NCBI GenBank assembly: GCA_963753725.1
Contig: CAVWDI010000036.1
Coordinates: 67,565-131,564 of the forward strand
Length of the DNA stretch: 64,000 bases
DNA from: an uncultured Chloroflexia bacterium
GTDB lineage: Bacteria; Chloroflexota; Anaerolineae; Anaerolineales; UBA4823
Direction: 5' to 3'
The notes below the pieces were generated by a model. The model saw only the letters and a list, made by a program, of their open reading frames with translations. It had not been told where the DNA came from and made no database searches. The position numbers and the translations under genes are program-made. Positions 13,145 to 62,131 of this stretch are shown one piece after another. Within the stretch, counting starts at the first letter, position 1; each line of letters begins with the position of its first letter.

Positions 13145-13237
<93 letters not shown>

Positions 13238-15072: not shown

Positions 15073-15099
15073 TTATCAGATACATAGAATATGATGAAT

Positions 15100-15203: not shown

Positions 15204-15259
15204 TTTCAATTTTGTTAATCCATTCAAATTTTAGTGATTGACTTGTAGGCAAATTTCAC

Positions 15260-18118: not shown

Positions 18119-18214
18119 TACCATTTTGTATATATTTCGAATTGAGAGGCGTGCTAAAATATAGATATTGCACCCATGAGTTACAAAAAAATTCCTACGA
18201 CGGGTAGATGATTT

Positions 18215-34895: not shown

Positions 34896-36765
34896 CTAAA
34901 TAGAAGTCGTGGTATTCACATTCTGCAATGGCAGATAAACTCCCCTGGCCTCACCACTCGGAACACAATGGGATTCATTATCCTGTATGTTGAAAGCATA
35001 CAGTGAATACACCCCCACACCGCCATAAGAGAACAGTTCAGAAGCGACCGTCTGCTCATACCCGTACAGCCGTTCCTCCAGTTTATTCCGATCGTACCCG
35101 AACGGCTCCAGCACCGACTCTGCCGCCCGCAGCAGCAGCTCTTTGTAGTAGTCCAGGTTCAGTGCGGCGCGCTCCAGCGGCTGGGGCAGGTCCCAGGCGT
35201 GCACACCCGGCTGGCCGCGCGTGTAGTGGAAGCGCACGCTCTGCCCGGCACGCAGGGTCTTGCCAACGGCCTGCAGTTGGAAGGCAGCCCGTGCGGATGG
35301 GGAGGGCACGCGGTATTCGTTTAGCTCCCGGCTGAGCTTCTGCTTGACCAGCAGGTCTTTCAGCGGCACCCAACCGTGCCGCAGGTCGACCAACTTGCGG
35401 CGTAATAATGCAAAGACCTGCTCCAGGCTGGTCTCCTCGTCACCTCGTCGGCCGGAAGCCAGCAGCCGCAGGATTTCCATCTGGGTATCGACCACAAAGG
35501 GCGACGCATCACGCCGGCGGGCCTCGATGCCGCGCACTTTGAGCGTGCCGTCCTGGTAGACGCCGAAGTAGCGGTTGGCGACCGGCACGCGCCCGTCCAG
35601 GCGCGAGGGCAGGAAGGCCACCCAGCGGTAGATGCCGTCCAGGGCGATCGGCAGCCCGGTGCGTTTAGCAATCTCTTTCAGCAGGGGCTGTAACGCTTCT
35701 ACGGTCTTTGCGCCAGTTTTCTTGACCCACATGCCGTCTACGTACATGTGCAGCACCTGGTAACCCATGTCCTCAGCGGCTTCTTTAGCGCGCAGCAGCG
35801 CTTCGCGACCGTAAGCGGTGACCGCCTCGTGGGCTTCGATGCGCCCGAAGCGGGCGTTCTTGTAACCCAGGTAGCCAAAACAGGTCACCAGCAGCCATTT
35901 CTGGGCGGAGGCGCGCGCTTCGTAAGATTTGCGGCGCGGGTTCCGAGCGGGGTGGAGGCCAGGCGGTTCTTGAAAGCGATACGTTTGCCGAGTAAAGGGG
36001 AAAGCGTGCGCGGCACCAGGCCGGGCCCCTGCTCGCCGTAGGGCGCCTCAATCACCTGCAGGTCACCGGGGTTGGGCGGCTTTGCGCCGGCGGTCTCGGG
36101 GGAGATGTTGAAGCGCACCATGATCCCGGGATACATGGAGATGAAATCGATCCCGGCCACGTCGTGGTGCAGCCCGACCGTGGGCTGGTAGACCAGCCCG
36201 CCCTGGTCGGCGGCGAACATGTCCAGGGCAGTTTTGGGGCGCTCGGCCTGCTGCTTTTGCCAGGGCACCAGGATGCCCATGCGCAGGGCGGTCAGTATCT
36301 GCATGGAGGAGATGGCGGTGCCAGGCGAGGCGCGCGCCGCGGTCTGCAGCGGCAGGGAAGAGACGCGCGCGACACCTCCAGCGAACCCTCCAGTTCGTAG
36401 TCGTCCCACAGCATGATATTGTGGCCGTCCAGGTGCCAGCGCCCGAACAGCAGCACCTGCTGGCCGCGGTAGATCACCTGGCCGTAGGAGAAGTAAGTGC
36501 GCTCCGGGCGGTGGGCGACTCCGAATCTTGAATCGCGGTTGAGCGGCAGCGGGAGGCGGTGTTTTTTCGAGAGTTCGAGCAGGCGCGGTAATAACCCGAT
36601 GTCCCCCCAGGAGGTCAGCAGCAGGTCGGGGTCGTGGCGTTTGAGGATGGCGCGCAGGTTGACCAGCAGCGGCCGTTCGGGCTTTAATGCCAGGCGGTAG
36701 TTATAGCGCTCGAAGTTCAGGAGGAGATGGCTGGGCGGCGAGCGGTTGGGGTCGCGGTCCGGCCT
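34896..36765 (-). pseudogene. Family-B DNA polymerase gene fragment (5'-truncated, at least 2 frame shifts) in a GC-rich block
   Basis: Minus-strand pieces carry an exo-like region (KRHDPDLLLTSWGD, GRWHLDGHNIM), motif A GIDFISMYPGIM, motif B-like QKWLLVTCFGYLGYKNARFG, a motif C-like region GYQVLHMYVDGMWV, and KVRGIEARRRD. About 625 codons are present versus roughly 780-800 expected. Confidence 0.7.
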
Positions 36766-45537: not shown

Positions 45538-46876
45538 GGTGTAAAAAGGATTGACAAAAAAGGTCATCCTGTGCTTCCATAAGTTTTTCGACAAAATACA
45601 AAAAGGAGCACAAAGATGACCGACCCAACTATAGCACTTAAGGAATACCTTATCAATATAGGACTTGAAGAAGACGCAGATTTTCTGCAGCAGGGTGTGC
45701 AACTGCTCAGTCAAATGCTGATGGAAGTTGAAGTGGAACAGCAAATCGGAGCTGGGAAACATGAACGCAATCCTGAGCGGAAGAATTACCGCAACGGCCA
45801 TCGCCAACGGACCTGGAAAACTCGGGTAGGCGAGATCGACCTGGCGATCCCCAAACTGCGCAAAGGCAGTTACTTTCCCAGTTTGCTGCAACCACGCAGG
45901 CCAGCGGAGAAGGCGCTTCTGGCGGTTGTTCAAGAAGCCTATCTGAAAGGAGTGAGCACCAGAAAAGTTGACGCCTTGCTGAAAGCTCTTGGATTGACAG
46001 GCATCGATAAGAGCGAAGTATCCAGGATCAATAAAGAATTGAGCCATGTAGTGGATGAATTTCGCAATCGACCGTTGCAAGCGAGTTATCCATACATTTG
46101 GCTGGATGCCACGTATTTCAAGGTCAGGCAGAACCATCGCGTGGTCAGCATGGCATTTGTGATTGGTGTTGGTGTGGACGAGACAGGTGAACGACATCTG
46201 CTGGGATTTGACCTTGGTGCTAGCGAAGAAAAAGCATTTTGGTTGGCGTTTTTGCGTTCGTTGGTCAAAAGAGGCCTGAAAAACGTGCAATTGATCATTA
46301 GCGATGCACACGAAGGTTTGAAGGAGGCTTTGAGCCAGGTGTTCACAGGAGCCAGTTGGCAGCGATGCCGAGTGCATTTCATGAGAAATATACTGGCGCT
46401 TATCCCGAAAAAGGATAAATGTGCAGTGGCAGATGCGGTACGCATGATCTTTGATCAGCCCGATCGTTTTACTGCTGGCGTTCAGCTTCACAAACTGGCC
46501 CAAAGTCTGCAGAACTATTACCCAAAGGCAGCCCAATTGCTGATCGAGGCTGAAGAAGATATCCTGGCATACAAGATGTTTCCAAGAGAGCATTGGCGCA
46601 GGATCCATTCCATCAATCCTTTGGAGCGTATGCATAAGGAGGTAAAACGAAGAACAAATGTTGTTGGCGTTTTCCCGGATCAAGGCTCTGTTTTTCGATT
46701 AGCTGGAATGCTCCTAATAGAGATCGATGATGATTGGCGAGTAGGACGCCGGTACTTTCAAGAAGATAGCATGCAGTTATTGAAAGATTGGAAAAACATT
46801 CCTGAAAAGGTGAAAACATCATTTCTTGTAAATGTTGCTGCTGATTTATCATTGGAAGCGCAATAGAATTTACACC
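45538..46876 (+). mobile_element. IS256-family insertion sequence (boundaries tentative)
   Basis: ggtgtaaa at 45538 faces tttacacc ending at 46876 as short terminal inverted repeats. It encloses an intact transposase gene. No target duplication was recognised. Confidence 0.6.
45616..46866 (+). CDS. IS256-family (Transposase_mut) transposase
   Basis: 416 aa. Blocks YRNGHRQRTWKTRVGEIDLAIPKLRKGSYFPSLL, YIWLDATYFKVR, LIISDAHEGLKEAL, WQRCRVHFMRN. Confidence 0.9.
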   Translation: MTDPTIALKEYLINIGLEEDADFLQQGVQLLSQMLMEVEVEQQIGAGKHERNPERKNYRNGHRQRTWKTRVGEIDLAIPKLRKGSYFPSLLQPRRPAEKALLAVVQEAYLKGVSTRKVDALLKALGLTGIDKSEVSRINKELSHVVDEFRNRPLQASYPYIWLDATYFKVRQNHRVVSMAFVIGVGVDETGERHLLGFDLGASEEKAFWLAFLRSLVKRGLKNVQLIISDAHEGLKEALSQVFTGASWQRCRVHFMRNILALIPKKDKCAVADAVRMIFDQPDRFTAGVQLHKLAQSLQNYYPKAAQLLIEAEEDILAYKMFPREHWRRIHSINPLERMHKEVKRRTNVVGVFPDQGSVFRLAGMLLIEIDDDWRVGRRYFQEDSMQLLKDWKNIPEKVKTSFLVNVAADLSLEAQ

Positions 46877-47372: not shown

Positions 47373-47681
47373 ATGAAAAAACGACGCACATTCACACCCG
47401 AATTCAAAGCCCAAGTGGTGCTCGATATGATCACTACTCCAAAAAGTGCAGCCCAAGCCAGTCGAGAATATGGCATCAAAGATTTTGTCCTCTCACGTTG
47501 GAAACAAGAATTTATCGAGCGTTCTCCAATGTTGTTTGATCAAAGTCCAGTCAATGATGATAGGGATCAACGCATCGCCGAGTTGGAACGCATGGTGGGG
47601 CGCATGACTATGGAGCTGGAAATGGCAAAAAAAGTGTCCAATTTCTTGAACTCGAGCGGCAAGAAAAGCGTGAATTGGTAA
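47373..47681 (+). CDS. IS3-family transposase OrfA (HTH)
   Basis: MKKRRTFTPEFKAQVVLDMI...SRWKQEF is a typical IS3 OrfA with a leucine-zipper-like C-terminus. Confidence 0.85.
   Translation: MKKRRTFTPEFKAQVVLDMITTPKSAAQASREYGIKDFVLSRWKQEFIERSPMLFDQSPVNDDRDQRIAELERMVGRMTMELEMAKKVSNFLNSSGKKSVNW
47627..47633 (+). promoter_or_regulatory. Programmed -1 ribosomal frameshift slippery run (A7) joining orfA to orfB
   Basis: gcA AAA AAA gtg in the orfA frame. The -1 frame then reads KKSVQFLELERQEKRELVSMLSDQEGYPV with no stop into orfB. Confidence 0.65.
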
Positions 47682-48532
47682 GCATGTTGAGTGACCAAGA
47701 AGGCTATCCCGTGGTTGCAGCATGTGAACTGCTGAAATTACAGCGCAGTACGTTCTATTATCAATCCGAAAATGTCGACGAAAGTGAGTTGGAAGCTGCG
47801 ATTGAAGACATTGCAGGAAAATTCCCGACCTATGGGACTCGGCGAGTGACACAAGAACTAAGGCGGTATCCATACGAACTGCCGGTTAATCGTAAGAGAG
47901 TACGGCGAATAATGGCTAAAAAGAAGTTGCTGCGGCCTGTAAAACGACGAAAGCGACATACTACAGATAGCGACCACCCCTATCCTCGCTATCCAAACCT
48001 GGTTAAAGATCTGGAAATCTCTCGGCCGGACCAGGTTTGGGTCAGCGACATAACATACATCCGTCTGCAGTATACGCACGTGTACCTGGCTGTCATAATG
48101 GATGTATTCACACGGGCGATCCGTGGTTGGTGCTTGAGCCGTACGCTCGACCAGGAGTTAACATTGACAGCTTTACGACCAGCTCTGGATACGCACATTC
48201 CCGAAATCCATCACAGCGACCAGGGCATCCAATATGCCGCTTATGCCTACACCGATTTGTTGCAGGCACATGGCATCCAGATAAGCATGGCCGCTGCCGG
48301 GAAAGCCGAAGAAAACGGTTATGCGGAACGCTTGATCCGCACCATTAAAGAAGAGGAGGTGTACCTTTCTGAATATCGTGATTTTTCCGATGCACGCACT
48401 CAGATTGGATGCTTTGTAGAGGATGTTTATATGACTAAACGCATCCATTCATCACTGGGGTACTTAACACCGGTTGAGTATGAGATTGCCTGGTGGCAGT
48501 CAAACGTACAATCGGTTATGGAATCCCCCTAA
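47675..48532 (+). CDS. IS3-family transposase OrfB (rve integrase core)
   Basis: VWVSDITYIRL...IHHSDQGIQYAA...AEENGYAERLIRTIKEEEV...HSSLGYLTPVEYE gives the DDE triad context. Confidence 0.85.
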   Translation: MVSMLSDQEGYPVVAACELLKLQRSTFYYQSENVDESELEAAIEDIAGKFPTYGTRRVTQELRRYPYELPVNRKRVRRIMAKKKLLRPVKRRKRHTTDSDHPYPRYPNLVKDLEISRPDQVWVSDITYIRLQYTHVYLAVIMDVFTRAIRGWCLSRTLDQELTLTALRPALDTHIPEIHHSDQGIQYAAYAYTDLLQAHGIQISMAAAGKAEENGYAERLIRTIKEEEVYLSEYRDFSDARTQIGCFVEDVYMTKRIHSSLGYLTPVEYEIAWWQSNVQSVMESP

Positions 48533-49249: not shown

Positions 49250-49611
49250 ATGGGAGCGAAAATGAACACGTATGTTCAGAGTTTTGAAAGGGTTAATTGG
49301 AATGAAATAATAAGAATGTATCGAGTACCTGATTTCCCAAAGGCGGTTGGTCAGATATTATCATCAGTAGTTCCATATATTGGGATGATGATTTTGATGT
49401 ATTTCACTTTAGAAATTTCTTATTGGTGGACGTTGCTACTGGCTGTTCCCACAGCAGGATTTGCTGTAAGGACATTTATCATTTTCCATGATTGCGGCCA
49501 TCAGAGCTTTTTTGGTTCTAAGAATAAAAAAGTCAATGATATTCTTGGGGTGATAACAGGGCTATTGACATTTACGCCATATCATTTTTGGAGACGTGCT
49601 CATGCCAAACA
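49250..49611 (+). pseudogene. Fatty-acid desaturase N-terminal fragment, cut by the IS3-family element
   Basis: First His box HDCGHQSF and the start of the second (WRRAHAKH|), at which point the IS end tgacctgccccc begins (49612). Confidence 0.65.
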
Positions 49612-49637
49612 TGACCTGCCCCCAAAATATGTACCAG

Positions 49638-50504
49638 TCACAATGTTAGACTAACTTGATTTATTTGAGAAGGTTGAATCACAACAGCAGCTGGAGCTGG
49701 TGGTTTGTAACCCAGTGAACTGTGTGGCCTGACCATATTGTAATGATTTCTCCACATTTCAATTAGAATTTGGGCCTCCTTTAGCGAATAAAATATTTCT
49801 CTGTCTAAAAGCTCATCTCTCATCTTGCCATTGAAGGATTCGATGTAGCCATTCTCCCACGGACTGCCAGGTTCGATAAATAGAGGTCTGACCGACAACC
49901 TGGATAAGAACTTTCGCACTTTCTTGGCAATAAACTCCGAGCCATTATCTGAACGGATATGCACCGGTACTCCTCGTTCAAGAAACAAATCCAATAGCAC
50001 ATCCAGAACATCCTTGTGAGTAAATCTTCGAGCCACTTTGACGATCAAACACTCCCGAGAGTATTCATCGATTACATTCAGAATACGGAAAGGAACCCCA
50101 TTGTGAGTTCGGTGCTGCATGAAATCATAGCTCCAGACATGCTTGGGGAACTCAGGTCTCAGTCTCACGATCGAACCATCATTGAGCCATAATCGACCCC
50201 GTTTAGGCTGTTTTTGGGGTACTTTCAGCCCTTCCTGGCGCCAGATCCGCTCTACTCGCTTGTGATTGACTACCCAACCTTGATTTCGTAACATGGCTGT
50301 CACTCTGCGATATCCATATCTGCCATACTCACTCGCCAGCTGCAGGACTTGTTCTCGCAGTATATGTTCATCATCTGGAACCCTTTTGTCATATCTTTGG
50401 GTTGATCTTGGTTGTCCGATTACCCGGCAGGCTCGTCGCTCCGAAACTTCCAGCACTTCCTTCACTTGCTTTACCGCTTCTCGCCGCCTGTCCGGGCTGA
50501 TCAC
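49638..50504 (-). CDS. IS3-family transposase OrfB (rve integrase core)
   Basis: HVWSYDFM...IRSDNGSEFIAKKV...PGSPWENGYIESFNGKMRDELL...RPHSSLGYKPPAP. Confidence 0.85.
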   Translation of the reverse strand: MISPDRRREAVKQVKEVLEVSERRACRVIGQPRSTQRYDKRVPDDEHILREQVLQLASEYGRYGYRRVTAMLRNQGWVVNHKRVERIWRQEGLKVPQKQPKRGRLWLNDGSIVRLRPEFPKHVWSYDFMQHRTHNGVPFRILNVIDEYSRECLIVKVARRFTHKDVLDVLLDLFLERGVPVHIRSDNGSEFIAKKVRKFLSRLSVRPLFIEPGSPWENGYIESFNGKMRDELLDREIFYSLKEAQILIEMWRNHYNMVRPHSSLGYKPPAPAAVVIQPSQINQVSLTL

Positions 50505-50776
50505 TTTTTTGAGAGCACCTCCTTCAAGATCGCATTATCCAGGGATAAGTCTGCCACCAGTGTCTTCAACTGCAGGTTCTCTTTTTCAAGTTGTTTCAAT
50601 TTCCTGGCTTGGGTGGTATCCAATCCCCCATATTCTTTACGCCAGCGGTAGTAGGTCTGCTCGCTGATTTCTAATTGACGGGCGGCCTCAACCACAGTCA
50701 TGCCCTGGCTTAATAGTACTTCGGCTTCACGAAGTTTGGTAATAATTTGTTCAGATGAAAACTGTTTCCTTGGCAT
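50501..50776 (-). CDS. IS3-family transposase OrfA
   Basis: MPRKQFSSEQIITKLREAEVLLSQGMTVVEAARQLEISEQTYYRWRKEYGG... (HTH). Confidence 0.85.
   Translation of the reverse strand: MPRKQFSSEQIITKLREAEVLLSQGMTVVEAARQLEISEQTYYRWRKEYGGLDTTQARKLKQLEKENLQLKTLVADLSLDNAILKEVLSKK
50504..50510 (-). promoter_or_regulatory. Canonical A AAA AAG -1 frameshift heptamer at the orfA/orfB junction
   Basis: The minus strand reads ctc tcA AAA AAG tga. The -1 frame continues KKVISPDRRREAVKQV (OrfB). Confidence 0.7.
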
Positions 50777-51401
50777 TCTGCCTGCCTCCTTTTTGCCTTA
50801 ATCCTAACTTATCTTTTGGATCAGTTTTGGGGGGGCAGGTCAAAAACCATCAAACCTATTTTGAATATTCCAAGCGTGCAATTTCCACAATACTGTAAGC
50901 CTCTGGTGTTGTTGAAATCCGTGCCAACCGCGGTCTGCTGGGTTCACCCCGGGTGGGTCTGATTACTGATTGGTAGTCTCTTCCTGACTGGGCAAAATTT
51001 GCCGAGAGCTCTGAGTATCCGAAACTCGAGTATGAGCTGCTCAAGTCCACCACGAAAATCAACATCGATATCTGGGGACCCTCGCCATTTATACCATAGC
51101 CTCTCTGCCCTGAGAAATAAATTGATGCTCGAGTAGCCAGGGAGTTTACAATCTGGTAGGCACAATTAGCGCACCTTCCCGCTATTGATTTTATTAGATT
51201 GCTTGACTGTGCTGAACCTGGCAATCTTTCTTTGAAAGCACAAGCTTTTTTAAAGAAGAACAAGAATTACTATGGTAAAAAATAATTTCTATTGACCAAA
51301 TTATTGTCCCTCCTGTGAAAAAATTCAGATAAAAACCAATCCTCAGGCACCCTCAATGCTATTTAACTTTTTCCCTGGACGGGTGGCGTGAAGAACATTT
51401 T

Positions 51402-51908
51402 CTATTTCTTTTCATGCGATCGTTTGACCACCCACAGGGTAATGTCATCGTATTGAGGTATTTCGCCTGTAAAGGTGTCGACATCCACGAGAATTCCTGC
51501 CAGAATTTCCTGCGATTCCTTACCATTTAGCTTTGATATAGAACCCCACAAGTTTTTTTCTCCAAAAGGAACACGATGGTGGTTCTCGGCGTCCGTAATT
51601 CCATCAGTGTACATAACTAAAAAATCATCCGGTCCTAATACCTCAGTCCGCTGCTTCCATATTTCCTTTTTATAAATCCCCAACGGTATCCCTGTTCGCT
51701 TCAATTCCTGAAGTGGCCTACCATTTATCTTTCTCACCAATAGCGGAGGGCAGTGACCGGCATTGCAGTATGCCAACTCACCGCTTTTCAGATTGAGTAT
51801 CCCGTAAAATATGGTTATAAATTGGGAGGCGGTTGTGTAATCCAGTATGCGCTGGTTGACAATATTCAATACTTGCTCAGGCTGGGATGGATATTCTGTC
51901 ACATAAGA
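51402..51908 (-). pseudogene. PP2C/SpoIIE-type serine phosphatase, C-terminal half only
   Basis: FITIFYGILNLKSGELAYCNAGHCPPLL...LVMYTDGITDAEN...DDITLWVVKR are the C-terminal PP2C motifs. The N-terminal half is replaced by the IS5/IS1182 fragment at about 51909. Confidence 0.65.
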
Positions 51909-52601
51909 AATATTTCCTTTGCTCTTTCGCATGACCATGCTCGTCTTTGACTTTCTGTGTATGTTTCACCCCCCATTGAGCATCTGGATCGCGTGGACCT
52001 TTGCCCTTATTTTTTCTGTTTTCATCCTTAGATGTGTTCACGTTGGCTATACTATGCACACTGTCCACAATCTGGATCGAGCCAAATTGAACGCCACTTT
52101 CCAGCGCTATCTGGATGATCTCAGTAAGCAATTCCTCAAACGCTTCCAACTTGCCCCTCTCTATCAACCGCTTCCTGAACTTGGTCAACGTAGAATGATC
52201 CGGCGCTTTCTGATCTACAGCCAGCCCAACAAAATACTTGGCTGACAAATTGTCATTCACATAGGTCTCTACCTGGCGCTCGGAAAGGTTGTATAGATAG
52301 GCTATCATCTCCATTTTTAGCATCAGGGCAGGATCGAAAGGCGGTCGCCCGTACCTCCCGCCACCTTTGTATAGCCCGATTAGCCTCTTCGTAAATCGTT
52401 CCCAAGGGATGATTTCTTTCAGTTTACGCAGAAAGTGCTCTTGGGGCACTATTTGATCGTATATGTAATCTCCAAAGAATGAATTCTTGCCTGTCTCTAC
52501 AAATCGCTCTTTTCCCATTTCATGCTCCAATTACGGTGTTTGCATGATTATATTAAAGAACGATTCTGAGGTCAATTTTGAATTTGTTTTTCAACACTCT
52601 C
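51909..52601 (-). mobile_element. IS5/IS1182-family element, 5' half only (copy 1)
   Basis: The end gagagtgttgaaaaacaaatt (reverse complement of 52581-52601) and the transposase N-terminus are nearly identical to copy 2 at 59763. Similarity stops after ...AKEQRKYF. Confidence 0.8.
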
Positions 52602-52610
52602 ATACTCAAG

Positions 52611-52668
52611 TAGGGCGGGTGGGAATCAAACCCACAAAGTATCTCTACCGGCGGATTCTAAATCCCCC
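52611..52668 (-). other. tRNA-Leu(UAG)-like 3' fragment (pseudo-tRNA) abutting the IS end
   Basis: The minus strand reads gggga-TTTAGAA-tccgc (anticodon-arm-like, UAG), then a long variable region, the T arm gtggg-TTTGATT-cccac, and the acceptor strand ccgccct-a. The T loop is non-canonical and there is no 5' half. Confidence 0.4.
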
Positions 52669-52802
52669 AATTCCTAAAATGATCGAATACTCAAACCTGC
52701 TTCCTCTGAAGGATGTCAGTTATTACAGAATATTCATGAGGGCTACCTGAGCAACAGCTTTTTGGTATGTTACTTGCTTCCTGTTAAACTAGCCCCTCAT
52801 GC

Positions 52803-52950
52803 GCGGTCATGCCATGGCTCAAAAGCACTTTGGCTTCACGAAGCTTGGTAATAATTTAATCAGATGAAATCTATTTCCTTTGTATCGTGCTTGCCTCCTT
52901 TTTGTTCTAGTCCGAACTTATCTTATGGATCAGTTTTTGGGGGCAGGTCG
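52803..52950 (-). mobile_element. Solo left-end fragment of the 49.6-kb IS3-family element
   Basis: It parallels 50695-50842, including degraded orfA N-terminal codons and the terminus tttttgggggcaggtcg. Confidence 0.55.
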
Positions 52951-53288
52951 ACATGGCGAGACCGAGCTAAATCAATCTATGGGTCGGACTGGCACTGTGT
53001 GATCAATGTCGCTCACGTGTTCTGATGTGAAATTTCAATGGTAACTCAAGAGGTGGGAAGGTTGATACGATGCTTTGCCAGCAAACGATGGTTTTTGTCC
53101 AAAAGATAAATATTCACCAAGACACTTAAGGCGGTTTGATTGAGGAGAATGTCACCGATTGTATTGAAATAGTGTTGACCATTTATCACAATCAGCTAAA
53201 ATATATAATATGAGGTTGAGGTGGTCAAATAGTTAAAAATAGACCATTCAGCGATAGGCTATCCATTAACCCCTATTAGGAGGATGCA

Positions 53289-53699
53289 ATGAGTGATGCT
53301 TCAGAATTTATAAAGGTCGGCAAAACTCCCACCACAGACTTTACCATTGCCGATCCGGACATCTTGATTGGCACACCCAAACCAGGCACGGTTGACAATC
53401 AAGAGTCAGCCAAAATCAATGTTGAATTTGAGGGAAATTATGCCCGCGAGTTGGGGAAACGTATCTGTGTTGTTATTCTCGTGGATAATTTACTGGCCCA
53501 GGATGCCGAGACCAGAAGGGTTTATACTGAAGGATTAGGCGAAGATAGTATTTATGGTGTCGCCCTGGTTTCTGGTAATTCCATGGGGCGAGCCATCGCG
53601 AGCTTTTTTATGGGCCTCTCTAAGCCAAAGGTCCCAACAAAAATCTTTGATTCTATCCAGAGCGCCATAGCATGGGCGCGATCTATTCGAACGGAGTAG
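53289..53699 (+). CDS. Small soluble protein, paralog A (possibly STAS/SpoIIAA-like fold)
   Basis: 136 aa with RBS aggagg upstream. It shares ...GLSKPKVPTKIFDSIQSAIAWA with its neighbour. The fold assignment is an impression from the C-terminal pattern. Confidence 0.6.
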   Translation: MSDASEFIKVGKTPTTDFTIADPDILIGTPKPGTVDNQESAKINVEFEGNYARELGKRICVVILVDNLLAQDAETRRVYTEGLGEDSIYGVALVSGNSMGRAIASFFMGLSKPKVPTKIFDSIQSAIAWARSIRTE

Positions 53700-53702
53700 A
53701 AA

Positions 53703-54116
53703 ATGACGATAAATACCGAAGGATGGAAAGAAATTGGAGAAACTGCCAACGCCACGATATTTGAAGTGGAACCCCGGATACTGGTCGTTGTGCCCGTAGA
53801 AGGCGCCATCGATGATGGAGACACGGCCAAGGCTAACCTTGAAATGCAAGTGGATTATCTAAGTTCCAAAGGCCAGAAGGCGGGTGTAATTATCACTATG
53901 GATCCAGTCGCCGAACAAACCGCCGCTGCCAGAGCTGTTTACCGGGACGATACGGACCCTGTTTTATTTGCCTGTTATGCAATTGTAGGCGGCACTTTTT
54001 TTGCTCGGGCTGTGGGTTCAGTTTTTCTGGGTCTGTCCAAGCCCCGTATCCCCACCTCTATGTTCGCTTCGTTTGAAGATGCTCTTGAATGGTGTCGCGT
54101 CCAAGTAGGAAAGTAG
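53703..54116 (+). CDS. Small soluble protein, paralog B
   Basis: 137 aa, beginning 4 nt after paralog A ends. ...GLSKPRIPTSMFASFEDALEWC aligns along the full length with paralog A. Confidence 0.6.
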   Translation: MTINTEGWKEIGETANATIFEVEPRILVVVPVEGAIDDGDTAKANLEMQVDYLSSKGQKAGVIITMDPVAEQTAAARAVYRDDTDPVLFACYAIVGGTFFARAVGSVFLGLSKPRIPTSMFASFEDALEWCRVQVGK

Positions 54117-54123
54117 ACAACCC

Positions 54124-55536
54124 TTGACCGAACTGCATCTTCCATCCCTCCTGATAGAGGGATTTGAAAAACTGGCCTCCGGCGACTTTTCTTACCGTTT
54201 ACCTCGCAGCATGGAACACGATGAGGAAGATGCCATTGCGTTTTATTACAATACTGTAGCTGAAGAGCTGGGGCGGATTTTCCGCGCCTCCCAGGCTAAC
54301 GAGCAGCGTTTGAACCAGTCCGTTGAGGCGATATCTGCTGCGCTGTTCGACTTAGCTGCAGGTAACCTTGAGGTTGAGGTGGAACGGGATTACAAAGGGG
54401 ATCAACTGGATGTGCTCACTTTTATGGTCAATACTACTATCAGCGAGCTAAATCTTCTTGTGACCGAAAACCAGCGCCGCAACGCCGAATCCCAGGCTCG
54501 TCTTGAAAGTGCTGTCGAAGAACGCACCCAAGCCCTGTCGCAAGCCCTGGATGATCTCAAAGCTACACAGCGAGACTTGATCCAATCGGAAAAGATGGCC
54601 GCATTGGGGCAACTGATTGCCGGAATTGCCCACGAGATAAACACACCTTTGGGGGCTATTGGCGCATCGATTGGTAACATTTCTAATGCCCTCGAAGACT
54701 CCATCCAGCAATTGCCCCTATTAATTCAACGCCTTTCACTTCAACAGCAGGAGGATTTCTTTGCCCTGCTCGACAGATCGTTGGCCAACCAGGACGTACT
54801 ATCCTCCAGAGAAGAACGCAATTTCAAACGAGCCTTGAGTAGAAAACTGCAAGCCCAAAGGGTTGATGGGTCTGATCGTGTTGCCGACACCCTGGTTGAT
54901 ATGGGCATTTATGAAGATATTGATGCTTTCATCCCCATCTTTCAATCAGAGAACGCGGATTTGATTTTGAACACGACCTATAACCTGTCCAGCCAGCAAA
55001 AAAATAGTCGAAATATCGCCACTGCTGTCGAGCGAGCTTCGAGAATGGTTTTTGCCCTAAAGCGGTACATTCACCGGGACCCTTCCGGTGAGATGATTGA
55101 GGCGAATGTCACTGATGGTATCGAGGTGGTATTGACTCTTTACTATAACCAGATAAAACACGGGGTTGAGGTGATCAAAAAATTTCAACCCGTACCGTCT
55201 ATTCGTTGCGCACCTCATGAACTGAACCAGGTCTGGACAAACCTGATCCAAAATGCGCTGCAAGCAATGAACTATAAAGGGCAATTGGAGATAGCAGTCT
55301 TTCAGCAAAACGGGCAGGTAGTGACTCAGATTACAGACTCTGGTCCCGGCATTCCCGATGAAATGAAAGAGCGAATTTTTGAACCCTTCTTTACCACTAA
55401 ACCTGTTGGAGAGGGCAGTGGTTTAGGCCTGGATATTGTTCGTAAAATCGTTAAGAAACATCAAGGAAAAGTGGAAGTAGAAAGCCGTCCAGGCCGGACG
55501 ACGTTTAGTGTTCGGCTACCTATTGAGCCGTCGTGA
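54124..55536 (+). CDS. Cytoplasmic sensor histidine kinase (no TM segments)
   Basis: Two HAMP-like or coiled segments. H box [23 protein letters not shown] box [15 protein letters not shown] boxes DSGPGIP and [12 protein letters not shown] start per the ORF track. Confidence 0.85.
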
Positions 55537-55543
55537 GGCAAGT

Positions 55544-55942
55544 ATGGTTAAAAAAGCAATTCTGTGCGTTGATGACGAAAAAATCGTTCTGATCAGCTTG
55601 AAATCTCAAATCAAGAAACATTTTGGCAATCGTTATATCTATGAATTTGCGGAGAGTGCTGCTGAGACCTGGGAAGTCATCGAAGAACTATACGACGACG
55701 GAATCGAATTATTGGTCATTGTCTCAGATTGGCTGATGCCAAAAACCAAGGGCGATGAATTACTTATCGAAATTCATAAAAAATTCCCAAATATTATCAC
55801 AGTGCTATTAACCGGTCACGCCGACCAACAAGCCATTACCCGCTGCCGTGAGCAGGCCAACCTCCACCGTTGCTTGTTCAAGCCGTGGACCGAACAAGAG
55901 TTAATCGAAACCATTGAGTCAGGGTTGGAACAACTACAATGA
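55544..55942 (+). CDS. Stand-alone response-regulator receiver protein
   Basis: MVKKAILCVDDEK...LLVIVSDWLMPKTKGDE...VLLTGHAD...KPW. Receiver Asp and Lys are present. Confidence 0.85.
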   Translation: MVKKAILCVDDEKIVLISLKSQIKKHFGNRYIYEFAESAAETWEVIEELYDDGIELLVIVSDWLMPKTKGDELLIEIHKKFPNIITVLLTGHADQQAITRCREQANLHRCLFKPWTEQELIETIESGLEQLQ

Positions 55943-57270
55943 AGAAAAAAGCTGTGATTCTCTGCGTAGATGATGAAAAGATGGTCCTGGTCAGTCTAAG
56001 GCAACAGCTCAAGCGTAAATTTGAGCGTAAATACATCCTTGAAACAGCTGAGAGCGGTGAGGAAGCTCTGGAAATTATCGAGGAGTTACTTCAAAATAAT
56101 ATTGATATCCCCGTTGTCCTCTCTGACCACATTATGCCCGGTATGAAGGGAGATGAGTTGCTAAAGCGGATTCACGAGCTTTCTCCTAGAACTTTAAATA
56201 TCCTTTTGACCGGCCAAGCCAACGCCGATGCCGTTGGTTATGTGGTCAACTATGCCAACCTCTATCGCTACATTGCCAAACCGTGGGATCAAACTGACCT
56301 GAACTTAACCATAGCCGAGGCAACCCGCAGCTACTTTCAAGATAAAAAGCTAGAAGAACAGAATGTAATCTTGGAAGAAACGAACCAGGAGTTGCTGGAG
56401 CTTAACACATCTTATGAACGTTTTGTGCCCCGTGAATTCTTAAGCGTTTTGCAAAAGAAAAGCATCATCGATGTTCAACTGGGCGACCATATCGAAAAGA
56501 AAATGACTGTCTTATTTTCGGATATCCGTGACTTCACGTTACTGTCAGAAAGTATGAATCCCCAGGAAAACTTTAATTTCATCAACGCTTATCTGGTGCG
56601 AATGGAGCCAATTATTCGGAATCACAACGGCTTTATAGATAAATATATAGGAGATGCAGTTATGGCCTTGTTTCCTACCTCGGCCAATGATGCGATACAA
56701 TGTTCCATTGATATGCTCAAACAATTGAACGCTTATAACAAGCATCGACAAAGCAAGGGGGATCAGCCAATTAACATTGGTATTGGTCTGCATACCGGCT
56801 TGTTGATGTTGGGCACGGTGGGGGGCCAAAGCCGAATGGACGGCACAGTCATCAGTGATGCCGTAAATTTAACAGCTCGCATAGAAAAAATGTCCAAACT
56901 CTATGGCGCGCCGCTAATAATTAGTGAACAAATCCTGTATGAGCTTGACCAATCCAACCAACATCTTTTGCGTTTTCTGGGTAAGGTACAGGTCAAGGGT
57001 AAGAAAAAGCCGGTCTCGTTATTTGAAATTTTTGATGGCTATCCAGCTAAAATCATCGAATTGAAACTAAAGACCCAGACCGATTTTGAAGAGGGGCTGT
57101 TTCATTATTACGAACAAGAGTTTACCGAGGCCCTTGGTCACTTCAACCGGATTTTAGATGTTGATGCTGCGGATAAAGCTGCTAAACTTTATCTGAAACG
57201 CACGAAACATTATTTAGAATATGGGGTTCCTACTTATTGGGATGGGATTGAAGTACTTACAGAGAAGTAA
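55939..57270 (+). CDS. Response-regulator receiver fused to a class III adenylate/guanylate cyclase domain
   Basis: Receiver (CVDDEK, VVLSDHIMPGMKGDE, KPW). Cyclase blocks VLFSDIRDFTLLSE, DKYIGDAVMALF and GTVISDAVNLTARIE. The ATGA start overlaps the upstream stop. Confidence 0.85.
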   Translation: MKKKAVILCVDDEKMVLVSLRQQLKRKFERKYILETAESGEEALEIIEELLQNNIDIPVVLSDHIMPGMKGDELLKRIHELSPRTLNILLTGQANADAVGYVVNYANLYRYIAKPWDQTDLNLTIAEATRSYFQDKKLEEQNVILEETNQELLELNTSYERFVPREFLSVLQKKSIIDVQLGDHIEKKMTVLFSDIRDFTLLSESMNPQENFNFINAYLVRMEPIIRNHNGFIDKYIGDAVMALFPTSANDAIQCSIDMLKQLNAYNKHRQSKGDQPINIGIGLHTGLLMLGTVGGQSRMDGTVISDAVNLTARIEKMSKLYGAPLIISEQILYELDQSNQHLLRFLGKVQVKGKKKPVSLFEIFDGYPAKIIELKLKTQTDFEEGLFHYYEQEFTEALGHFNRILDVDAADKAAKLYLKRTKHYLEYGVPTYWDGIEVLTEK

Positions 57271-57291
57271 TCATTCACTCTCACGCCCAAT

Positions 57292-57519
57292 GTGATTTCA
57301 ATCAATATAGAAGAAGTTGGGTCCTTTTTGAAAGAAGTTGCACCAGAGAGGTTGGAATTATACGCGCAGGCGGATCGAATTCTGGTTGAGCAGCAGGCGG
57401 TGGTCATGCCCCTAACCTACATGTGGTCACACGCATTGGTGAAGCCATGGGTTCGTAAGTACCCCGCATCGGCGATCAATGAGTGGCTCTGGAAGGATTT
57501 TGTTATCGAACCTCATTGA
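57292..57519 (+). pseudogene. C-terminal relic of a family-5 (peptide/nickel-type) ABC substrate-binding protein
   Basis: LYAQADRILVEQQAVVMPLTYMWSHALVKPWVRKYP...DFVIEP resembles the conserved C-terminal end of SBP_bac_5 proteins. Only about 75 codons remain. Confidence 0.4.
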
Positions 57520-57634
57520 TCGGCCTTATAAATAGAGTCATAACGACTTTAGTGAAAAAAAATGATAAGATTAGATTTGGTTTGCCCAATAGATTTTCCA
57601 CAAACAGCAAAATCATGAGTTTTTCGAGCTAAAA

Positions 57635-59548
57635 ATGAATGTTCGAACCCTTTTTAAAATGTTTGCGAATAACCTGCGGAAAAATTCATCTTCAATTAGG
57701 TTAGATCATGGTTCGCGTGTAGCCGTCATAGGTGGCGGTCCGGCGGGTTCTTTCTTCAGCTACTTTCTCCTGGATATGGCTGAGCGGATTGATCTTAAAA
57801 TCCATGTAGATATTTACGAGCCAAGGGACTATACGGTGGCTGGTCCAGCTGGCTGCAACATGTGTGGTGGTGTCATGTATGAATCTCTTATCCAAAGTCT
57901 GGCTATCGAGGGAATCAACCTGCCCACAACTGTTGTGCAACGAGGGATAGAATATAACATGCTGCACATGGATATTGGCAGTGTCCAAATTCAAACTCCC
58001 CGTCAGGAGAAAAGGATTGCAACTACATTTCGCGGCGCCGGGCCGCGAGGTTCTTCAGAGTCAAAAAATGGAAGCCTCGATAAATATCTTTTGCATGCAG
58101 CAGTTTCGAAAGGCGCACGTCATATCCGTGGCCGGGTGAATGAAGTAGGTTGGTTTTCACTTGCTGACGCAACCGATCCATGCGATAAACTGATACAGAT
58201 CAAGACAAAAGGTGATGTATATCAGACATATGAGCTTCTGGCTGTAACAGCTGGTGTAAATACAGCCATCCTTAAGCTTTTCCTCGATTTGGATACCGGT
58301 TATCAGCCTCCTCGAACATCAAAATTGCTTGTCCGAGAGTACTATCTTGGAGAAGAAGTGGTTTCAAAATACCTCGGGCCTGTATTCCATGCCTTTTTGC
58401 TGGATATTCCTGGGCTTGATTATGGCGCAATTATTCCTAAAGGCAAATATGTGTCGATATGCCTGCTGAGCAGTCATGGAGACCTTGACCCTGGAATAAT
58501 GGATACTTTCATTAATAACCCCGCTGTTAAGAAAATTTTACCTCCTGAATTTTCACCAGCTGACCATGACTGTTATTGCCGTCCTCGCATTAATGTTTTG
58601 GGGTCTTCACAACCATTTGGGAACCGCATTGTATTTATTGGCGATAGTGGTGTAAGCCGTCTATACAAGGATGGAATTGGAGCGACGTATCGCGCTGCTA
58701 AAATTGCTGCAACTACAGCCATTTTCCAGGGCATCTCAGCGAGTGACTTTAAGAATCATTACATGCCTTTTTGCCAAAAGATGGATTTTGATAATCGTAT
58801 TGGGAAGTTGCTATTCAAGGCTGTAAGTCAAGTCCAGAAAATGCAATTTGCCAGGCGAGCAGTTCTGCGCATGGTTTCCAGTGAGCAACAAGGAAAGGCG
58901 AATGCCGTAAGAGGGATGAGTATGGTGATGTGGGATATGCTCACTGGAGGCGCGCTTTATGGAGAGGTTCTTAAGCGGGTGCTCCGCCCAACATTTTGGG
59001 CCCGCTTCTTATGGAATATTGTAAAATCACTCTTTTCTGCTGATGCAATCATAAAAAGGGTAAATTCAACTGGAACCTCACCGCCTCATCATATGACCGA
59101 TTTACAAAAATTGGAGACCAAAACCATGAGTATAGGAGCGTTAGGGAAAATTTATCAGGATAGAGAAACTATTGTACGTCAAGGTGAGGTAGGTGATTGT
59201 ATGTTTGTCGTCCAGGATGGTTTTGTGGAGGTGGTTATTGAGTCTGACGTTCAACAAGTTCAGCTAGATATACTCGGTAAAGATGAATTCTTTGGTGAGA
59301 TGGCGATCTTCAAACATGAGATTCGAACTGCCACAGTACGTGCAAAGGGACCCGCCAGGGTTCTCACTGTTGATCACAAAAACTTTTTACATCGCATTCA
59401 TGAAGATCCTTCTCTTGCATATCGCATGATGGAGGTTATGTCTGATCGAATTAATAAATTAAATAAAGAAGTTACAAAACTAAATCATATAATGTTCGAA
59501 TCCGATAACACAAAAAATAATTCAAAGTTGACTACAAATAATAATTGA
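57635..59548 (+). CDS. FAD-dependent oxidoreductase (geranylgeranyl-reductase-like) fused to a C-terminal cyclic-nucleotide-binding domain
   Basis: Rossmann motif VAVIGGGPAGSFF and a GGR-like CNMCGG. The C-terminal cNMP domain (about 59147-59500) has VRQGEVGDCMFVVQDG and the phosphate-binding cassette FFGEMAIFKHEIRTATVRA. Confidence 0.75.
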   Translation: MNVRTLFKMFANNLRKNSSSIRLDHGSRVAVIGGGPAGSFFSYFLLDMAERIDLKIHVDIYEPRDYTVAGPAGCNMCGGVMYESLIQSLAIEGINLPTTVVQRGIEYNMLHMDIGSVQIQTPRQEKRIATTFRGAGPRGSSESKNGSLDKYLLHAAVSKGARHIRGRVNEVGWFSLADATDPCDKLIQIKTKGDVYQTYELLAVTAGVNTAILKLFLDLDTGYQPPRTSKLLVREYYLGEEVVSKYLGPVFHAFLLDIPGLDYGAIIPKGKYVSICLLSSHGDLDPGIMDTFINNPAVKKILPPEFSPADHDCYCRPRINVLGSSQPFGNRIVFIGDSGVSRLYKDGIGATYRAAKIAATTAIFQGISASDFKNHYMPFCQKMDFDNRIGKLLFKAVSQVQKMQFARRAVLRMVSSEQQGKANAVRGMSMVMWDMLTGGALYGEVLKRVLRPTFWARFLWNIVKSLFSADAIIKRVNSTGTSPPHHMTDLQKLETKTMSIGALGKIYQDRETIVRQGEVGDCMFVVQDGFVEVVIESDVQQVQLDILGKDEFFGEMAIFKHEIRTATVRAKGPARVLTVDHKNFLHRIHEDPSLAYRMMEVMSDRINKLNKEVTKLNHIMFESDNTKNNSKLTTNNN

Positions 59549-59762
59549 AAATCATCAACCTTAAAAGAAGAAATTCTAGACAATAAGGAATTCAATAAGA
59601 GATCAATGGACAGGTAGGACACTTTTTTCCTTGAATTGACAATTATTTATCATGTACGAATTCTTCAAGAAGCGCTTTAGTCTCATGCAGGTCCACCGAT
59701 GCAAACCTTTCAATGCAATTTTAATCATCATTAATTTATAGACATGTCAAGAGATATTGATA

Positions 59763-61125
59763 GAGAGTGTTGAAAAACAAATATTTAATTGACCTCAAAA
59801 TCTTTCTTTAATATAATCAGACCAACAAAGTATTTGGAGCAGAAAATGGAAAAAGAACGATTTGTAGAGACTGGCAAGAATTCATTCTTTGGAGATTACA
59901 TTTATGATCAAATAGTGCCCCAAGATCACTTTCTACGTAGACTGAAAGAAATCATCCCTTGGGAGCGTTTCACGAAGAGACTAATCGTGCTATACAAAGG
60001 TGGCGGGAGGTACGGGCGACCGCCCTTCGATCCTGCCCTCATGCTAAAAATGGAGATGATAGCCTATCTATACAACCTGTCCGAGCGCCAGGTAGAGGCC
60101 TATGTGAATGACAATTTATCCGCCAAGTATTTTGTTGGGCTGGCTGTAGATCAGAAAGCGCCGGATCATTCTACGTTGACCAAGTTCAGGAAGCGATTGA
60201 TAGAGAGGGGCAAGTTGGAAGCGTTTGAGGAATTGCTTACTGAGATCATCCAGATAGCGCTGGAAAGTGGAGTTCAATTTGGCTCGATCCAGATTGTGGA
60301 CAGTGTGCATAGTATAGCCAACGTGAACACATCTAAGGATGAAAACAGAAAAAATAAGGGTAAAGGTCCACGCGATCCAGATGCTAAATGGGGGTGAAAC
60401 ATACACAGAAAGTCAAAGACGAGCATGGTCATGCGAAAGAGCAAAGGAAATATTTCTATGGATACAAAGCGCATGTGAGCCTGAATGCTGAAAGCGGCAT
60501 GATCACCAATTTAATTGTTACAGCGGGAAACGCGTATGATGGACATAAGCTTCCCGAATTGGTAAATCGAGACCTGGAACTAGGATTGCCGATCGATACG
60601 GTGGCAGCGGATCGAGGATATGATGATGGTAATAACCATTATTTCTTGCAGAAGAGAGGTTTGCACTCTGCCATACACCTGAATACGTACCGCACCCAAA
60701 AGAAAGACGAAAACAAAGAAGTATGGTTGCAACTCCAATCAACCCCCGAATATCAACAAGGGCAAAAAGAAAGATACAAAGTGGAACGAAAATTTGGTGA
60801 AGGCAAGCAGGGTCATGGATTGGGTCGCTGTCGTTACGTTGGAAGGATAGCGTATGCAATCCAGGTTTTGTTGACTGCGATGGCATTGAATCTGAAGCGG
60901 ATGGTGAAAATGTTGACTGGCACTAATTTCAAGGGCCGTGCTACCGTGATGGCCTGACCCAGGGACATTTGCCTCTGGTGCTAGAAATGATGTAAAAATA
61001 ATTGGAAATCAAGGGTACCCAATGGTCAATTTTGGGCTGTAAATGGACTGAATTCAATAATAATGCCCTTGATTCGATTGGCGATGGGAATATCTTTATT
61101 TATTGAATGATTATTCAACACTCTC
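59763..61125 (+). mobile_element. IS5/IS1182-family insertion sequence, full length (copy 2), transposase in two frames
   Basis: Terminal inverted repeats gagagtgttgaa (59763-) and ttcaacactctc (ending 61125). A 7-bp direct repeat attgata lies on both flanks (59756-59762, 61126-61132). ORFs 59846..60397 and 60388..60957 carry a DUF772-like N-terminus and the DDE domain (GYKAHV..., VAADRGYD..., YKVERKFGEGK). The frames are separated by a G5 run (60390-60394) that is G6 in copy 1. Confidence 0.85.
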
Positions 61126-62131
61126 ATTGATAAGGAAGTGTGTTCTTCCATTAGCCTGAAAAGAGGGTATTTGATCGATGATTAGGATCACCATGTGTTC
61201 CTTTTCAAAGACTGTGAAACAAAACTCAGGGGAAATATAAGAGAGCCTTTTCTCAGGATTTCATAATTTAATGAATCTTCGCCTTTCCTTAATCATGCCT
61301 GGTGTAGTTCTGGCAGAGTTCCGGTGCCTTCCCGGTGCAGATGGTACACCACTGCATGGAAATAATGGATACAGTGGACATCATTTGACACTTTTTGTGA
61401 ACTGTTTGGACGGAATACCAGGCAAAAGCATTCGGTAGACAAAGCTTGGCTGTGCTCTTAATCAACCAATAACCCAAATAGAAGACTGGATGTCAAATGC
61501 TGGAGTTATCTATAACCGAAAAAACCAGTCAATGCAAAATATCTTTATCAGCCTGGTCAGCTTCTTCGAATATTTTCTTCACCTCGTTTTTCATCTCATC
61601 ACTCGCGCTCGGACTATTGGGGATAAATTTGACCAGGTCACGAGCCTGCCGCAAGAGATCCTTTACCTTGGCAATGTAAGAAAAATCATATTTACCTGTT
61701 TGGGCCGGCACGGGCAGGTTAGCGAGCTTGTTGGATTAAATCGCGGGCCCGCTTGATACGCTCAGCGGCTGGAATTATGCGAGACATAGGTGCTCCTGTT
61801 ATAGTGTGATCTTAGACCTGTAGAGATAAAAGCAGCTTTTCCGGAAAGAAATCTGTGCCCTAGATGCTAGTTGTAAATTTTGCGAATTATAACTAGCAAT
61901 TTTAGATTATGTGATGTTAGCAGTAGAAATTATGCTAATTCCCTCAGTAGATTGACGTTAGTCTCCGGCAGCGGCCATAACCTGATCATTTCATGTGAGA
62001 AAGCACCTGGGCCTTTAGGTAACAGTTATGGGATTTGGATGTTGTTAGTGACCTCCTGACCGTCACAAAGACCGGACTTTCACCGATTATAAGATGATAG
62101 CTTTCAGGACACACCAGCGGAGTTTAGGCGC

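Follow-up and report, generated by a model that had tools for sequence, protein, structure and literature searches.

A six-gene locus of an Anaerolineales-type bacterium that may link DUF7793 proteins and a soluble histidine kinase to a flavoprotein with a cyclic nucleotide-binding domain

Pseudomonas aeruginosa has two systems, SiaABCD and HptB-HsbR-HsbA-HsbD, in which a diguanylate cyclase is activated through the binding of a STAS-like protein (SiaC or HsbA). A kinase and a PP2C phosphatase that are dedicated to this protein control its state. Stressosome modules of the RsbR/RsbS/RsbT type with two-component or GGDEF outputs exist as well. Class III nucleotide cyclases that are fused to a receiver (REC) domain are known from cyanobacteria (CyaC) and Myxococcus (CyaB), while class IIIb is represented by CyaB of P. 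aeruginosa and the photoactivated cyclases bPAC and OaPAC. The bacterial effectors of cyclic AMP (cAMP) are mainly transcription factors, next to a few enzymes and channels. Among the enzymes regulated by a cyclic nucleotide-binding (CNB) domain are the mycobacterial acetyltransferase Pat/KATmt and the Bdellovibrio EAL phosphodiesterase Bd1971. Here, a locus is described that brings such elements together. It comprises six genes at positions 53289 to 59548 of a 64,000-nucleotide (nt) stretch of DNA from an Anaerolineales-type bacterium (the window, to which all coordinates refer). The genes encode two small paralogs of the Pfam family DUF7793 (P1 and P2), a soluble histidine kinase, a stand-alone receiver, a receiver-cyclase and a flavin adenine dinucleotide (FAD)-dependent flavoprotein with a C-terminal CNB domain (FAD-CNB).

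The locus is probably a cytoplasmic signalling module in which an input pair and an output pair are joined, with kinase-controlled cAMP between them. P1 and P2 would bind the N-terminal HAMP-like units of the kinase and set its signalling state. The kinase would phosphorylate the stand-alone receiver, which likely serves as a sink or relay, and also the REC domain of the class IIIb adenylyl cyclase, thereby controlling the synthesis of cAMP. Finally, cAMP would bind the C-terminal CNB domain of the flavoprotein and alter its redox activity. This proposal builds on the observed gene order, the domain identities, the predicted STAS fold, the catalytic and phospho-acceptor residues and the synteny that is conserved for each pair and for the junction between them, and comparative genomics supports the wiring.

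All six open reading frames (ORFs) are located on the forward strand. The gene of P1 (53289-53699, 136 aa), whose ATG is preceded by an aggagg ribosome-binding site (Shine-Dalgarno), is followed after 3 nt by that of P2 (53703-54116, 137 aa). Gaps of 7 nt each separate P2 from the kinase (54124-55536, 470 aa, TTG start) and the kinase from the stand-alone receiver (55544-55942, 132 aa). The latter overlaps with the receiver-cyclase (55939-57270, 443 aa) in an ATGA at 55939-55942. An in-frame GTG at 55508 lies upstream of the receiver's ATG at 55544; the 132-aa gene is called identically in relatives. An earlier note on this DNA had placed the six same-strand genes and their tight spacings in this way, and both hold when the junctions are read directly. 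The FAD-CNB gene (57635-59548) follows the cyclase after a gap of 364 nt, which contains a 75-aa pseudogene remnant (57292-57519, forward strand). The same six genes in identical order are also found on independent metagenome contigs, with proteins 76-96% identical to those of the window, and the arrangement is therefore not a product of chance. A hydropathy scan revealed no convincing transmembrane segment in any of the six proteins. No RNA family was found by Rfam in 51000-61500, and promoter and terminator scans of the locus performed no better than on shuffled sequences. Exact-sequence look-ups gave no match for the kinase and FAD-CNB and matched the cyclase only to a 2.2-kb contig.

P1 and P2 are 31% identical to each other and match DUF7793 (PF25056) with 51.9 bits (E 8.8e-14) and 36.8 bits (E 4.4e-9), respectively, at a cut-off of 26. 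The Pfam STAS models did not match either protein, PF25056 being the only family found at E values up to 0.01, and each of the 45 homologues retrieved with P1 is a DUF7793 protein. The AlphaFold2 (AF2) model of P1, with a predicted local distance difference test (pLDDT) score of 91.4, displays the four- to five-stranded beta-sheet and the four helices of the SpoIIAA topology. Its best Foldseek match is RsbS (6jhk, E 1.9e-4, TM 0.63/0.72), and further matches include the STAS domains of SLC26 proteins, TM1081, SpoIIAA and SiaC. The matches have probabilities of 0.97-1.00 and TM values of 0.44-0.72, most of them at least 0.55. Two of the matched structures, 7e6g and 6kko in the Protein Data Bank (PDB), presumably belong to the SiaABCD and HptB-HsbR-HsbA-HsbD systems. 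A STAS/SpoIIAA fold is hence predicted for P1 and P2, which bears out the earlier description of the paralogs as STAS-like at the level of the fold.

The third protein can be assigned to the two-component histidine kinases from its H-box (IAHEINTPL) and its GHKL ATPase domain with N, G1 and G2 boxes. The latter matches HATPase_c with 94.2 bits (E 8.7e-27) and its GSGLGL motif is seen in the translation, while HisKA is matched partially (20.6 bits, residues 161-188, profile positions 2-29 of 66). The kinase is 95% identical to its orthologue in the comparison locus L002 (L-numbers denote loci from the genome and metagenome scans), and a Leptospirales homologue (L023) aligns with it over the full length (E 2e-85). 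The region from the H-box helix to the ATPase domain (residues ~190-365) contains about 100 extra residues. The earlier note had seen in this kinase neither a transmembrane segment nor a recognizable sensor domain. The first part stands, with a maximum KD19 hydropathy of 1.26. The second does not: a recognizable module of two HAMP-like units (54124-54468, forward strand, approximately residues 1-115) forms the N-terminus, ahead of the coiled coil, the DHp domain and the ATPase domain. The Pfam HAMP model scores 18.5-19.8 bits on the window kinase (E 0.001-0.003) at a cut-off of 25. Across 17 homologous N-terminal modules, the HAMP hidden Markov model is found in 14 (best E 4e-8) and HAMP_2 in seven. 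A word-based homologue search with the module of the window kinase gave six matches.

To place this module in a wider context, loci with DUF7793 genes were collected, 16 of them from a genome scan with the DUF7793 alignment and more from metagenome contigs; their ORFs were searched with the domains of the window and the results were checked by Pfam. The loci belong to Anaerolineales, Myxococcales/Polyangiaceae (Myxococcota), Acidobacteriota, Kapaibacteria, Leptospirales and others, i.e. to at least five phyla. In about 20 loci, the DUF7793 genes adjoin the gene of an effector protein whose N-terminus is homologous to the first ~150 residues of the kinase (E 1e-24 to 1e-54). One to five DUF7793 genes stand directly upstream of this effector in all loci but one, a Leptospirales locus in which the two are divergently oriented. 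The domains that follow the HAMP-like module vary: HisKA-HATPase, a hybrid kinase with two REC domains and Hpt, PAS-GGDEF, GGDEF or PAS-HisKA_3. Further downstream, genes for REC, REC-Hpt, REC-kinase, REC-GerE, REC-cyclase or REC-HD-GYP proteins are found. Because the partner is constant and the outputs are variable, DUF7793 and the HAMP-like module are considered an input pair. The suggestion that the two paralogs are candidates for the input of the kinase gains weight from their nearly constant position beside a protein with this N-terminal module.

An alignment of the effector N-termini shows that the second HAMP-like unit is universal (RDYxGDxxDVL...N.T..E), while the first is present in some loci only. 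Two-unit loci carry at least two DUF7793 genes in 10 of 12 cases and one-unit loci a single gene in all seven; this correlation is suggestive and phylogenetically confounded, as the one-unit loci are mostly from Polyangiaceae. In loci with multiple copies, the one proximal to the effector scores better against P2 in 10 of 11 cases (L107 being the exception), P1 representing the distal paralog type. Near the N-terminus of helix 2, the P1 type carries Q-D-A and the P2 type Q-T-A/S, at a position that is approximate, as it was obtained by rough secondary-structure matching and not by structural alignment.

As in the SiaC and HsbA systems, a small protein of the SpoIIAA fold is encoded beside a signalling enzyme, with a proposed action in trans on a helical region N-terminal to the catalytic domain, and DUF7793 proteins are likewise found with HAMP-GGDEF proteins. 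Unlike these systems, DUF7793 has no conserved dedicated kinase or PP2C phosphatase nearby and matches neither the Pfam STAS models nor DUF1987. Moreover, DUF7793 is paired with one particular HAMP-like module, which occurs in fusion with histidine kinases as well. The stressosome shares with the locus the tandem STAS paralogs upstream of a signalling output, and RsbS is the closest solved structure. An RsbT-type kinase and an RsbX phosphatase are nevertheless absent, and the DUF7793 proteins are single-domain proteins of ~136 aa that lack an N-terminal sensor.

The output of the kinase would pass to the two receivers, which match Response_reg with 55.4 and 59.7 bits (E 7.9e-15 for the stand-alone protein). 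In the stand-alone receiver (VDDE...VSDWLMP...LLTG...FKPW), the DD, D, T and K residues of phosphorylation are intact, and from its translation the receiver of the receiver-cyclase likewise keeps the phospho-acceptor residues. The second domain of the receiver-cyclase matches Guanylate_cyc with 70.8 bits and is followed by a TPR-like C-terminal tail. The cyclase motifs FSDIRDFT, DKYIGD and DGTVISDAVNLTAR could be aligned to Cya2, IlaC, CyaB and OaPAC/bPAC. The Lys of DKYIGD aligns with the Glu of the guanylyl cyclase Cya2, and a Lys at this position is also found in the engineered adenylyl cyclase IlaC, in CyaB and in the photoactivated cyclases. The Thr of DGTVISDAVN is the same as in CyaB and the photoactivated adenylyl cyclases, and both metal-binding Asp residues as well as the Asn/Arg pair are present. 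An assignment to the class IIIb adenylyl type is therefore supported by the sequence. The earlier note had based its adenylyl call on the Lys of DKYIGD, and the alignments with solved cyclases confirm this Lys/Thr signature; this motif and the FGE...RTATVRA of the CNB domain, both quoted there, are indeed present in the translations. The combination of a REC with a class III domain, the Lys/Thr signature, the pair of metal-binding Asp and the Asn/Arg pair agree with the known REC-fused and class IIIb cyclases. What sets the locus apart from CyaC, CyaB and the photoactivated cyclases is the separate soluble di-HAMP kinase with STAS-fold partners, and neither a bicarbonate nor a light input is implied. 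In each of the Anaerolineales-type loci (the window, L002-5, L011, L012 and L107), a REC-cyclase gene comes after that of the kinase.

The last protein of the locus consists of an FAD-binding oxidoreductase domain (57635-59086), with the motifs GGGPAG, GCNMCGG, CxCxP and GDSG...RLYKDG, and a linker with the C-terminal CNB domain (59087-59548). The CNB domain is canonical, as the earlier note had stated: it matches cNMP_binding with 68.8 bits (E 3.9e-19, cut-off 27.5) over residues 507-587, and the phosphate-binding cassette (FGEMAIF...RTATVRA) is intact. Within the family, G554, E555 and A566 do not vary, and R564 and T567 hardly do. In the PDB, the domain matches PKG, PKA-R, CRP and Bd1971.

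The FAD domain is more unusual. Neither Pfam nor NCBIfam gave a match for residues 1-484, and no Pfam model covers this domain in any of the family members. A profile of the family gave only weak matches in the PDB, to KMO and flavin halogenases (E 0.04-0.3), and none to a geranylgeranyl reductase (GGR) at E values up to 10. The earlier label 'geranylgeranyl-reductase-like' consequently finds no backing in Pfam, NCBIfam or the PDB profile search. What the domain does share with GGR and other flavoproteins of the PHBH fold (GR2) are an N-terminal GxGxxG FAD Rossmann motif, a late GD motif, a Cys-Gly-Gly soon after the first beta-alpha-beta unit and weak matches to KMO, flavin halogenases and FixC. 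It differs from GGR in lacking a significant match to GGR or to Pfam and NCBIfam flavoprotein models, and in its own CxxC...CxC signature. Foldseek with the poor FAD-CNB model (pLDDT 50.5) returned the same PHBH-fold superfamily, which serves as a hint to the superfamily only.

The family signature reads GxGPAG, C-N-x-C-G-G, C-x-C-x-P and GD...R..K.G. Its four Cys residues (CxxC...CxC) are each conserved in ~91-92% of 119 family sequences, which suggests a metal, iron-sulfur or redox-active site. The 120 best homologue clusters of FAD-CNB are 61-78% identical to it; where source names are given, they read 'CRP-like cAMP-binding protein/flavin-dependent dehydrogenase', and several come from metagenome-assembled genomes (MAGs) of Anaerolineales. 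A search with only the FAD domain yields 1018 representatives after clustering at 50%. The domain occurs as a stand-alone protein (~450 aa) or in fusion with one or two CNB domains, with FecR, DUF7530 or NDH-2, or with another FAD domain of the PHBH-like kind. FAD and CNB are split into two adjacent ORFs (~445 aa and ~125 aa) in about one half of the loci. From this pattern of fusion and fission, it is concluded that the FAD and CNB parts are functionally linked. The split loci include L035, L040, L041, L044, L047, L061, L067 and L078, further L084, L085, L088, L090, L095 and L102, and others; in about half of them, the two ORFs are in the same frame with a single stop in between. Selenocysteine insertion or read-through at this in-frame stop was considered and set aside, given that the two ORFs are in different frames in about half of these loci, as expected for ordinary separate genes.

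Pat/KATmt and Bd1971 turned up as NCBIfam and PDB matches of FAD-CNB, and they resemble it in the fusion of a canonical CNB domain to an enzyme, presumably as an allosteric switch. The regulated domain of FAD-CNB, however, is an FAD oxidoreductase without a Pfam family, and its CNB domain is C-terminal and often encoded by a separate gene. To our knowledge, no member of the FAD-CNB family has been characterized.

The genomic context of this family was analyzed in 79 FAD-CNB loci from a metagenome scan. Class III cyclases are the only neighbour family that recurs: the 155 kb of flanking DNA up to 1.5 kb from FAD-CNB contain 22 cyclase ORFs, a further two are situated at 1.5-3 kb, and the 167 kb of flank at more than 3 kb contain none. 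When the loci are dereplicated at 90% identity, an adjacent cyclase is found in 16 of 63 clusters, and in nine of the 29 whose flanks extend for 1 kb or more in both directions. The partner cyclases have at least four architectures, namely cyclase-AAA_16-TPR, cyclase-AAA_16-TPR-SBP_bac_5, REC-cyclase and FHA-cyclase. A gene of the DegV family (fatty-acid-binding) is the second most frequent real neighbour (7 of 79 loci, for example L084, 5366-6235, reverse strand), a faint hint at a lipid-related role of FAD-CNB. On the 1.5-Mb contig L106, which carries FAD-CNB and a cyclase-AAA_16-TPR gene, a second cNMP_binding protein (448 aa, at 1-627) is encoded ~5 kb further upstream, separated from them by DDE transposase genes.

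At least five lineages have FAD-CNB beside a DUF7793-kinase-REC-cyclase module: the window, L002-5/L079, L012, L032 and L107/L108 (an Anaerolineales MAG at NCBI). The FAD-CNB proteins of these lineages are 60-76% identical to one another. Two gene orders are observed, with FAD-CNB last (window, L002) or first (L012, L032, L107), and in L107 the stop of FAD-CNB overlaps with the start of the first DUF7793 gene as ATGA. The earlier note had proposed to check the co-occurrence and synteny of the genes across genomes, and the outcome favours the core of the circuit.

A comparison with L002, whose module DNA is 88% identical to that of the window, gives some insight into the history of the locus. 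The genes upstream of the module in L002 map to 12.6-19.3 kb of the window (12648-19301) and the downstream PolB gene to 34.7-36.8 kb (34723-36764), while the six-gene block itself lies at 53.0-59.6 kb (53020-59552). In the genome of the window, the block was apparently relocated as a whole, with all six genes. In L002, the module is situated between DnaJ and a family-B DNA polymerase, and the window counterparts of these flanks are 15-40 kb away from the module. The polymerase of the window appears broken, with ORFs of 330 and 174 aa at 34896-36409 versus 809 aa in L002. Two IS5-like insertion sequence (IS) copies bracket the block: a truncated copy on the left (51906-52601, reverse strand) with the N-terminal part of a DUF772 transposase, and a second one on the right (59763-60957, forward strand) with DUF772 and DDE_Tnp_1, its transposase split into two overlapping ORFs. 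They form an inverted repeat of ~700 nt (51906-52601 versus 59763-60457) with 94-100% identity, and the bracket looks like a decayed composite transposon.

The remnant in the gap between cyclase and FAD-CNB shares 56% identity (E 5e-21) with residues 1213-1268 of a 1268-aa protein of L030 and shows weak matches to the tail of OppA (NCBIfam). It is the tail of a cyclase-AAA_16-TPR-SBP_bac_5 gene; full-length genes of this architecture adjoin FAD-CNB in L030 and L109. The remnant is present in the window and L001 and absent from L002. Apparently, one type of cyclase replaced another beside FAD-CNB, which is consistent with selection for a cyclase at this position.

Several points weigh against the proposed module. 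All interactions, the phosphotransfer, the nucleotide that is made and bound, the signal sensed and the substrate of the flavoprotein are what we infer from domains and gene neighbourhoods. The HAMP assignment of the window kinase itself stays below the Pfam cut-off, so that its units are called HAMP-like. The full-length AF2 model of FAD-CNB is poor (pLDDT 50.5), and a contact between CNB and FAD cannot be derived from it. The loci in the synteny samples are phylogenetically clustered, and their counts are not independent events. No adjacent cyclase is found in ~70-75% of the FAD-CNB loci, and DUF7793 in few of them only. Co-transcription of FAD-CNB with the cyclase across the 364-nt gap is uncertain. 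Finally, FAD-CNB of the window (57635-59548) is 76% identical to that of L002 (14655-16535) versus 86-96% for the other five proteins, and the junction between cyclase and FAD-CNB must therefore have been remodelled. As FAD-CNB nevertheless stays 62-70% identical to much more distant lineages, its discordant divergence suggests an allele replacement or an independent juxtaposition, and the present adjacency in the window is not ancient. These last points are also what speaks for two independent units that happen to be neighbours. The cAMP from the DUF7793-kinase-REC-cyclase unit would then act globally, for example on CRP-type regulators, while FAD-CNB would answer to the cellular pool of cyclic nucleotides or to another cyclase, the adjacency in the window being due to IS-mediated rearrangement. 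The remnant of another cyclase gene in the gap, the IS copies around the block and the IS debris throughout the region fit this explanation, as does a FAD-CNB family far larger than the DUF7793 set and usually without DUF7793 neighbours. It is still considered unlikely, in view of the adjacency in at least five lineages with two gene orders, the ATGA overlap of L107 that implies a single operon, and a cyclase of some kind as the only recurrent neighbour of FAD-CNB. The remnant itself suggests that a cyclase was exchanged for a cyclase at the same position.

Two other explanations change the role of the inputs or of the output, and both are less probable still. The DUF7793 proteins might be downstream outputs or substrates of a partner switch (like SpoIIAA, RsbV and SiaC), set by phosphorylation and relaying the signal of the kinase elsewhere. 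The STAS fold, the structural matches to SpoIIAA, RsbS and SiaC, and the Thr of the P2 type and Asp of the P1 type, which by rough secondary-structure matching lie approximately at the phosphorylation site of SpoIIAA, would suit such a role. It is rather improbable given that neither an RsbW/SpoIIAB-type kinase nor a PP2C phosphatase recurs near DUF7793 in 19 loci, that the invariant partner is the HAMP-like module and not a kinase domain, and that DUF7793 also accompanies HAMP-GGDEF fusions, where no kinase is present. The position of the DUF7793 genes, almost always upstream of the effector, argues in the same direction. A Pycsar-like anti-phage pair, in which the class III cyclase would respond to infection by making a cyclic nucleotide and the flavoenzyme would then kill or arrest the cell, is regarded as very improbable. 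Like Pycsar (PycC and a CNB effector), the locus has a class III cyclase gene beside the gene of a CNB effector. The PADLOC PycC models match the cyclase (E 3e-23) and also the cyclases that accompany FAD-CNB in L106 and L030, and the CNB domain is similar to the corresponding part of PycTIR effectors (E 3e-11). In addition, the locus lies in an IS-rich variable region, and some partner cyclases are STAND-like (AAA_16-TPR). However, these PADLOC matches are at the domain level only, and a TIR or transmembrane effector part is missing. The cyclase has the Lys/Thr residues that indicate a purine (ATP) substrate, as do CyaB and the photoactivated cyclases, and is predicted to be under two-component control (REC), with AAA_16-TPR regulation in other partners. 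Unlike an obligate two-gene defence operon, FAD-CNB is a strongly conserved flavoenzyme (61-78% for the 120 best matches) that usually lacks a paired cyclase.

The surroundings of the locus are rich in mobile elements. An IS256-type transposase (45616-46866) and two IS3 elements (47675-48532 and 49638-50776) are found to the left of the module, the latter of which cuts off a fragment of a fatty-acid desaturase (49250-49654, forward strand, 134 aa). Next to the left IS5-like copy lies a PP2C/SpoIIE fragment (51402-51938, reverse strand, 178 aa, profile positions 23-191 of 192), cut off at 51906. The earlier note had seen in this fragment a hint of a former partner-switching layer of the module. 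It lies on the strand opposite to the module, with IS debris in between, and none of the related loci, L002-L005 included, contains it; it was therefore rejected as a part of the module, having been brought alongside by insertion sequences.

The relay from a kinase via a REC-cyclase and cAMP to a CNB effector uses known domain types. The pairing of DUF7793 with HAMP, and the FAD family with its coupling to cyclases, by contrast, appear to be undescribed, as far as can be judged from the absence of names or models in Pfam, NCBIfam and the PDB. In its general form, the proposed module combines two claims: DUF7793 proteins would be trans-acting inputs to orphan cytoplasmic HAMP domains, with about one paralog type per unit, and the Cys4 flavoprotein family would be a dedicated cAMP effector in Chloroflexota. 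That both are true together is put forward tentatively, as a possibility somewhat short of probable. The pairing of DUF7793 with HAMP offers a testable answer to the question of how a soluble HAMP domain without a transmembrane driver obtains its signals, and it ascribes a role to a protein family of unknown function that is present in several phyla. A family of cAMP-sensing flavoenzymes that is paired with its own cyclases would, if true, be a direct metabolic or redox output of cAMP, and it would provide a functional handle on an unannotated FAD family of ~1000 sequence clusters. Both pairs are compact and soluble, and hence suited to reconstitution in vitro. Should the joint reading be true, a widespread new signal feed into histidine kinases, diguanylate cyclases and adenylyl cyclases would be at hand, together with a direct route from cAMP to a redox enzyme with interchangeable cyclase inputs (two-component, STAND-type, FHA and SBP-fused).

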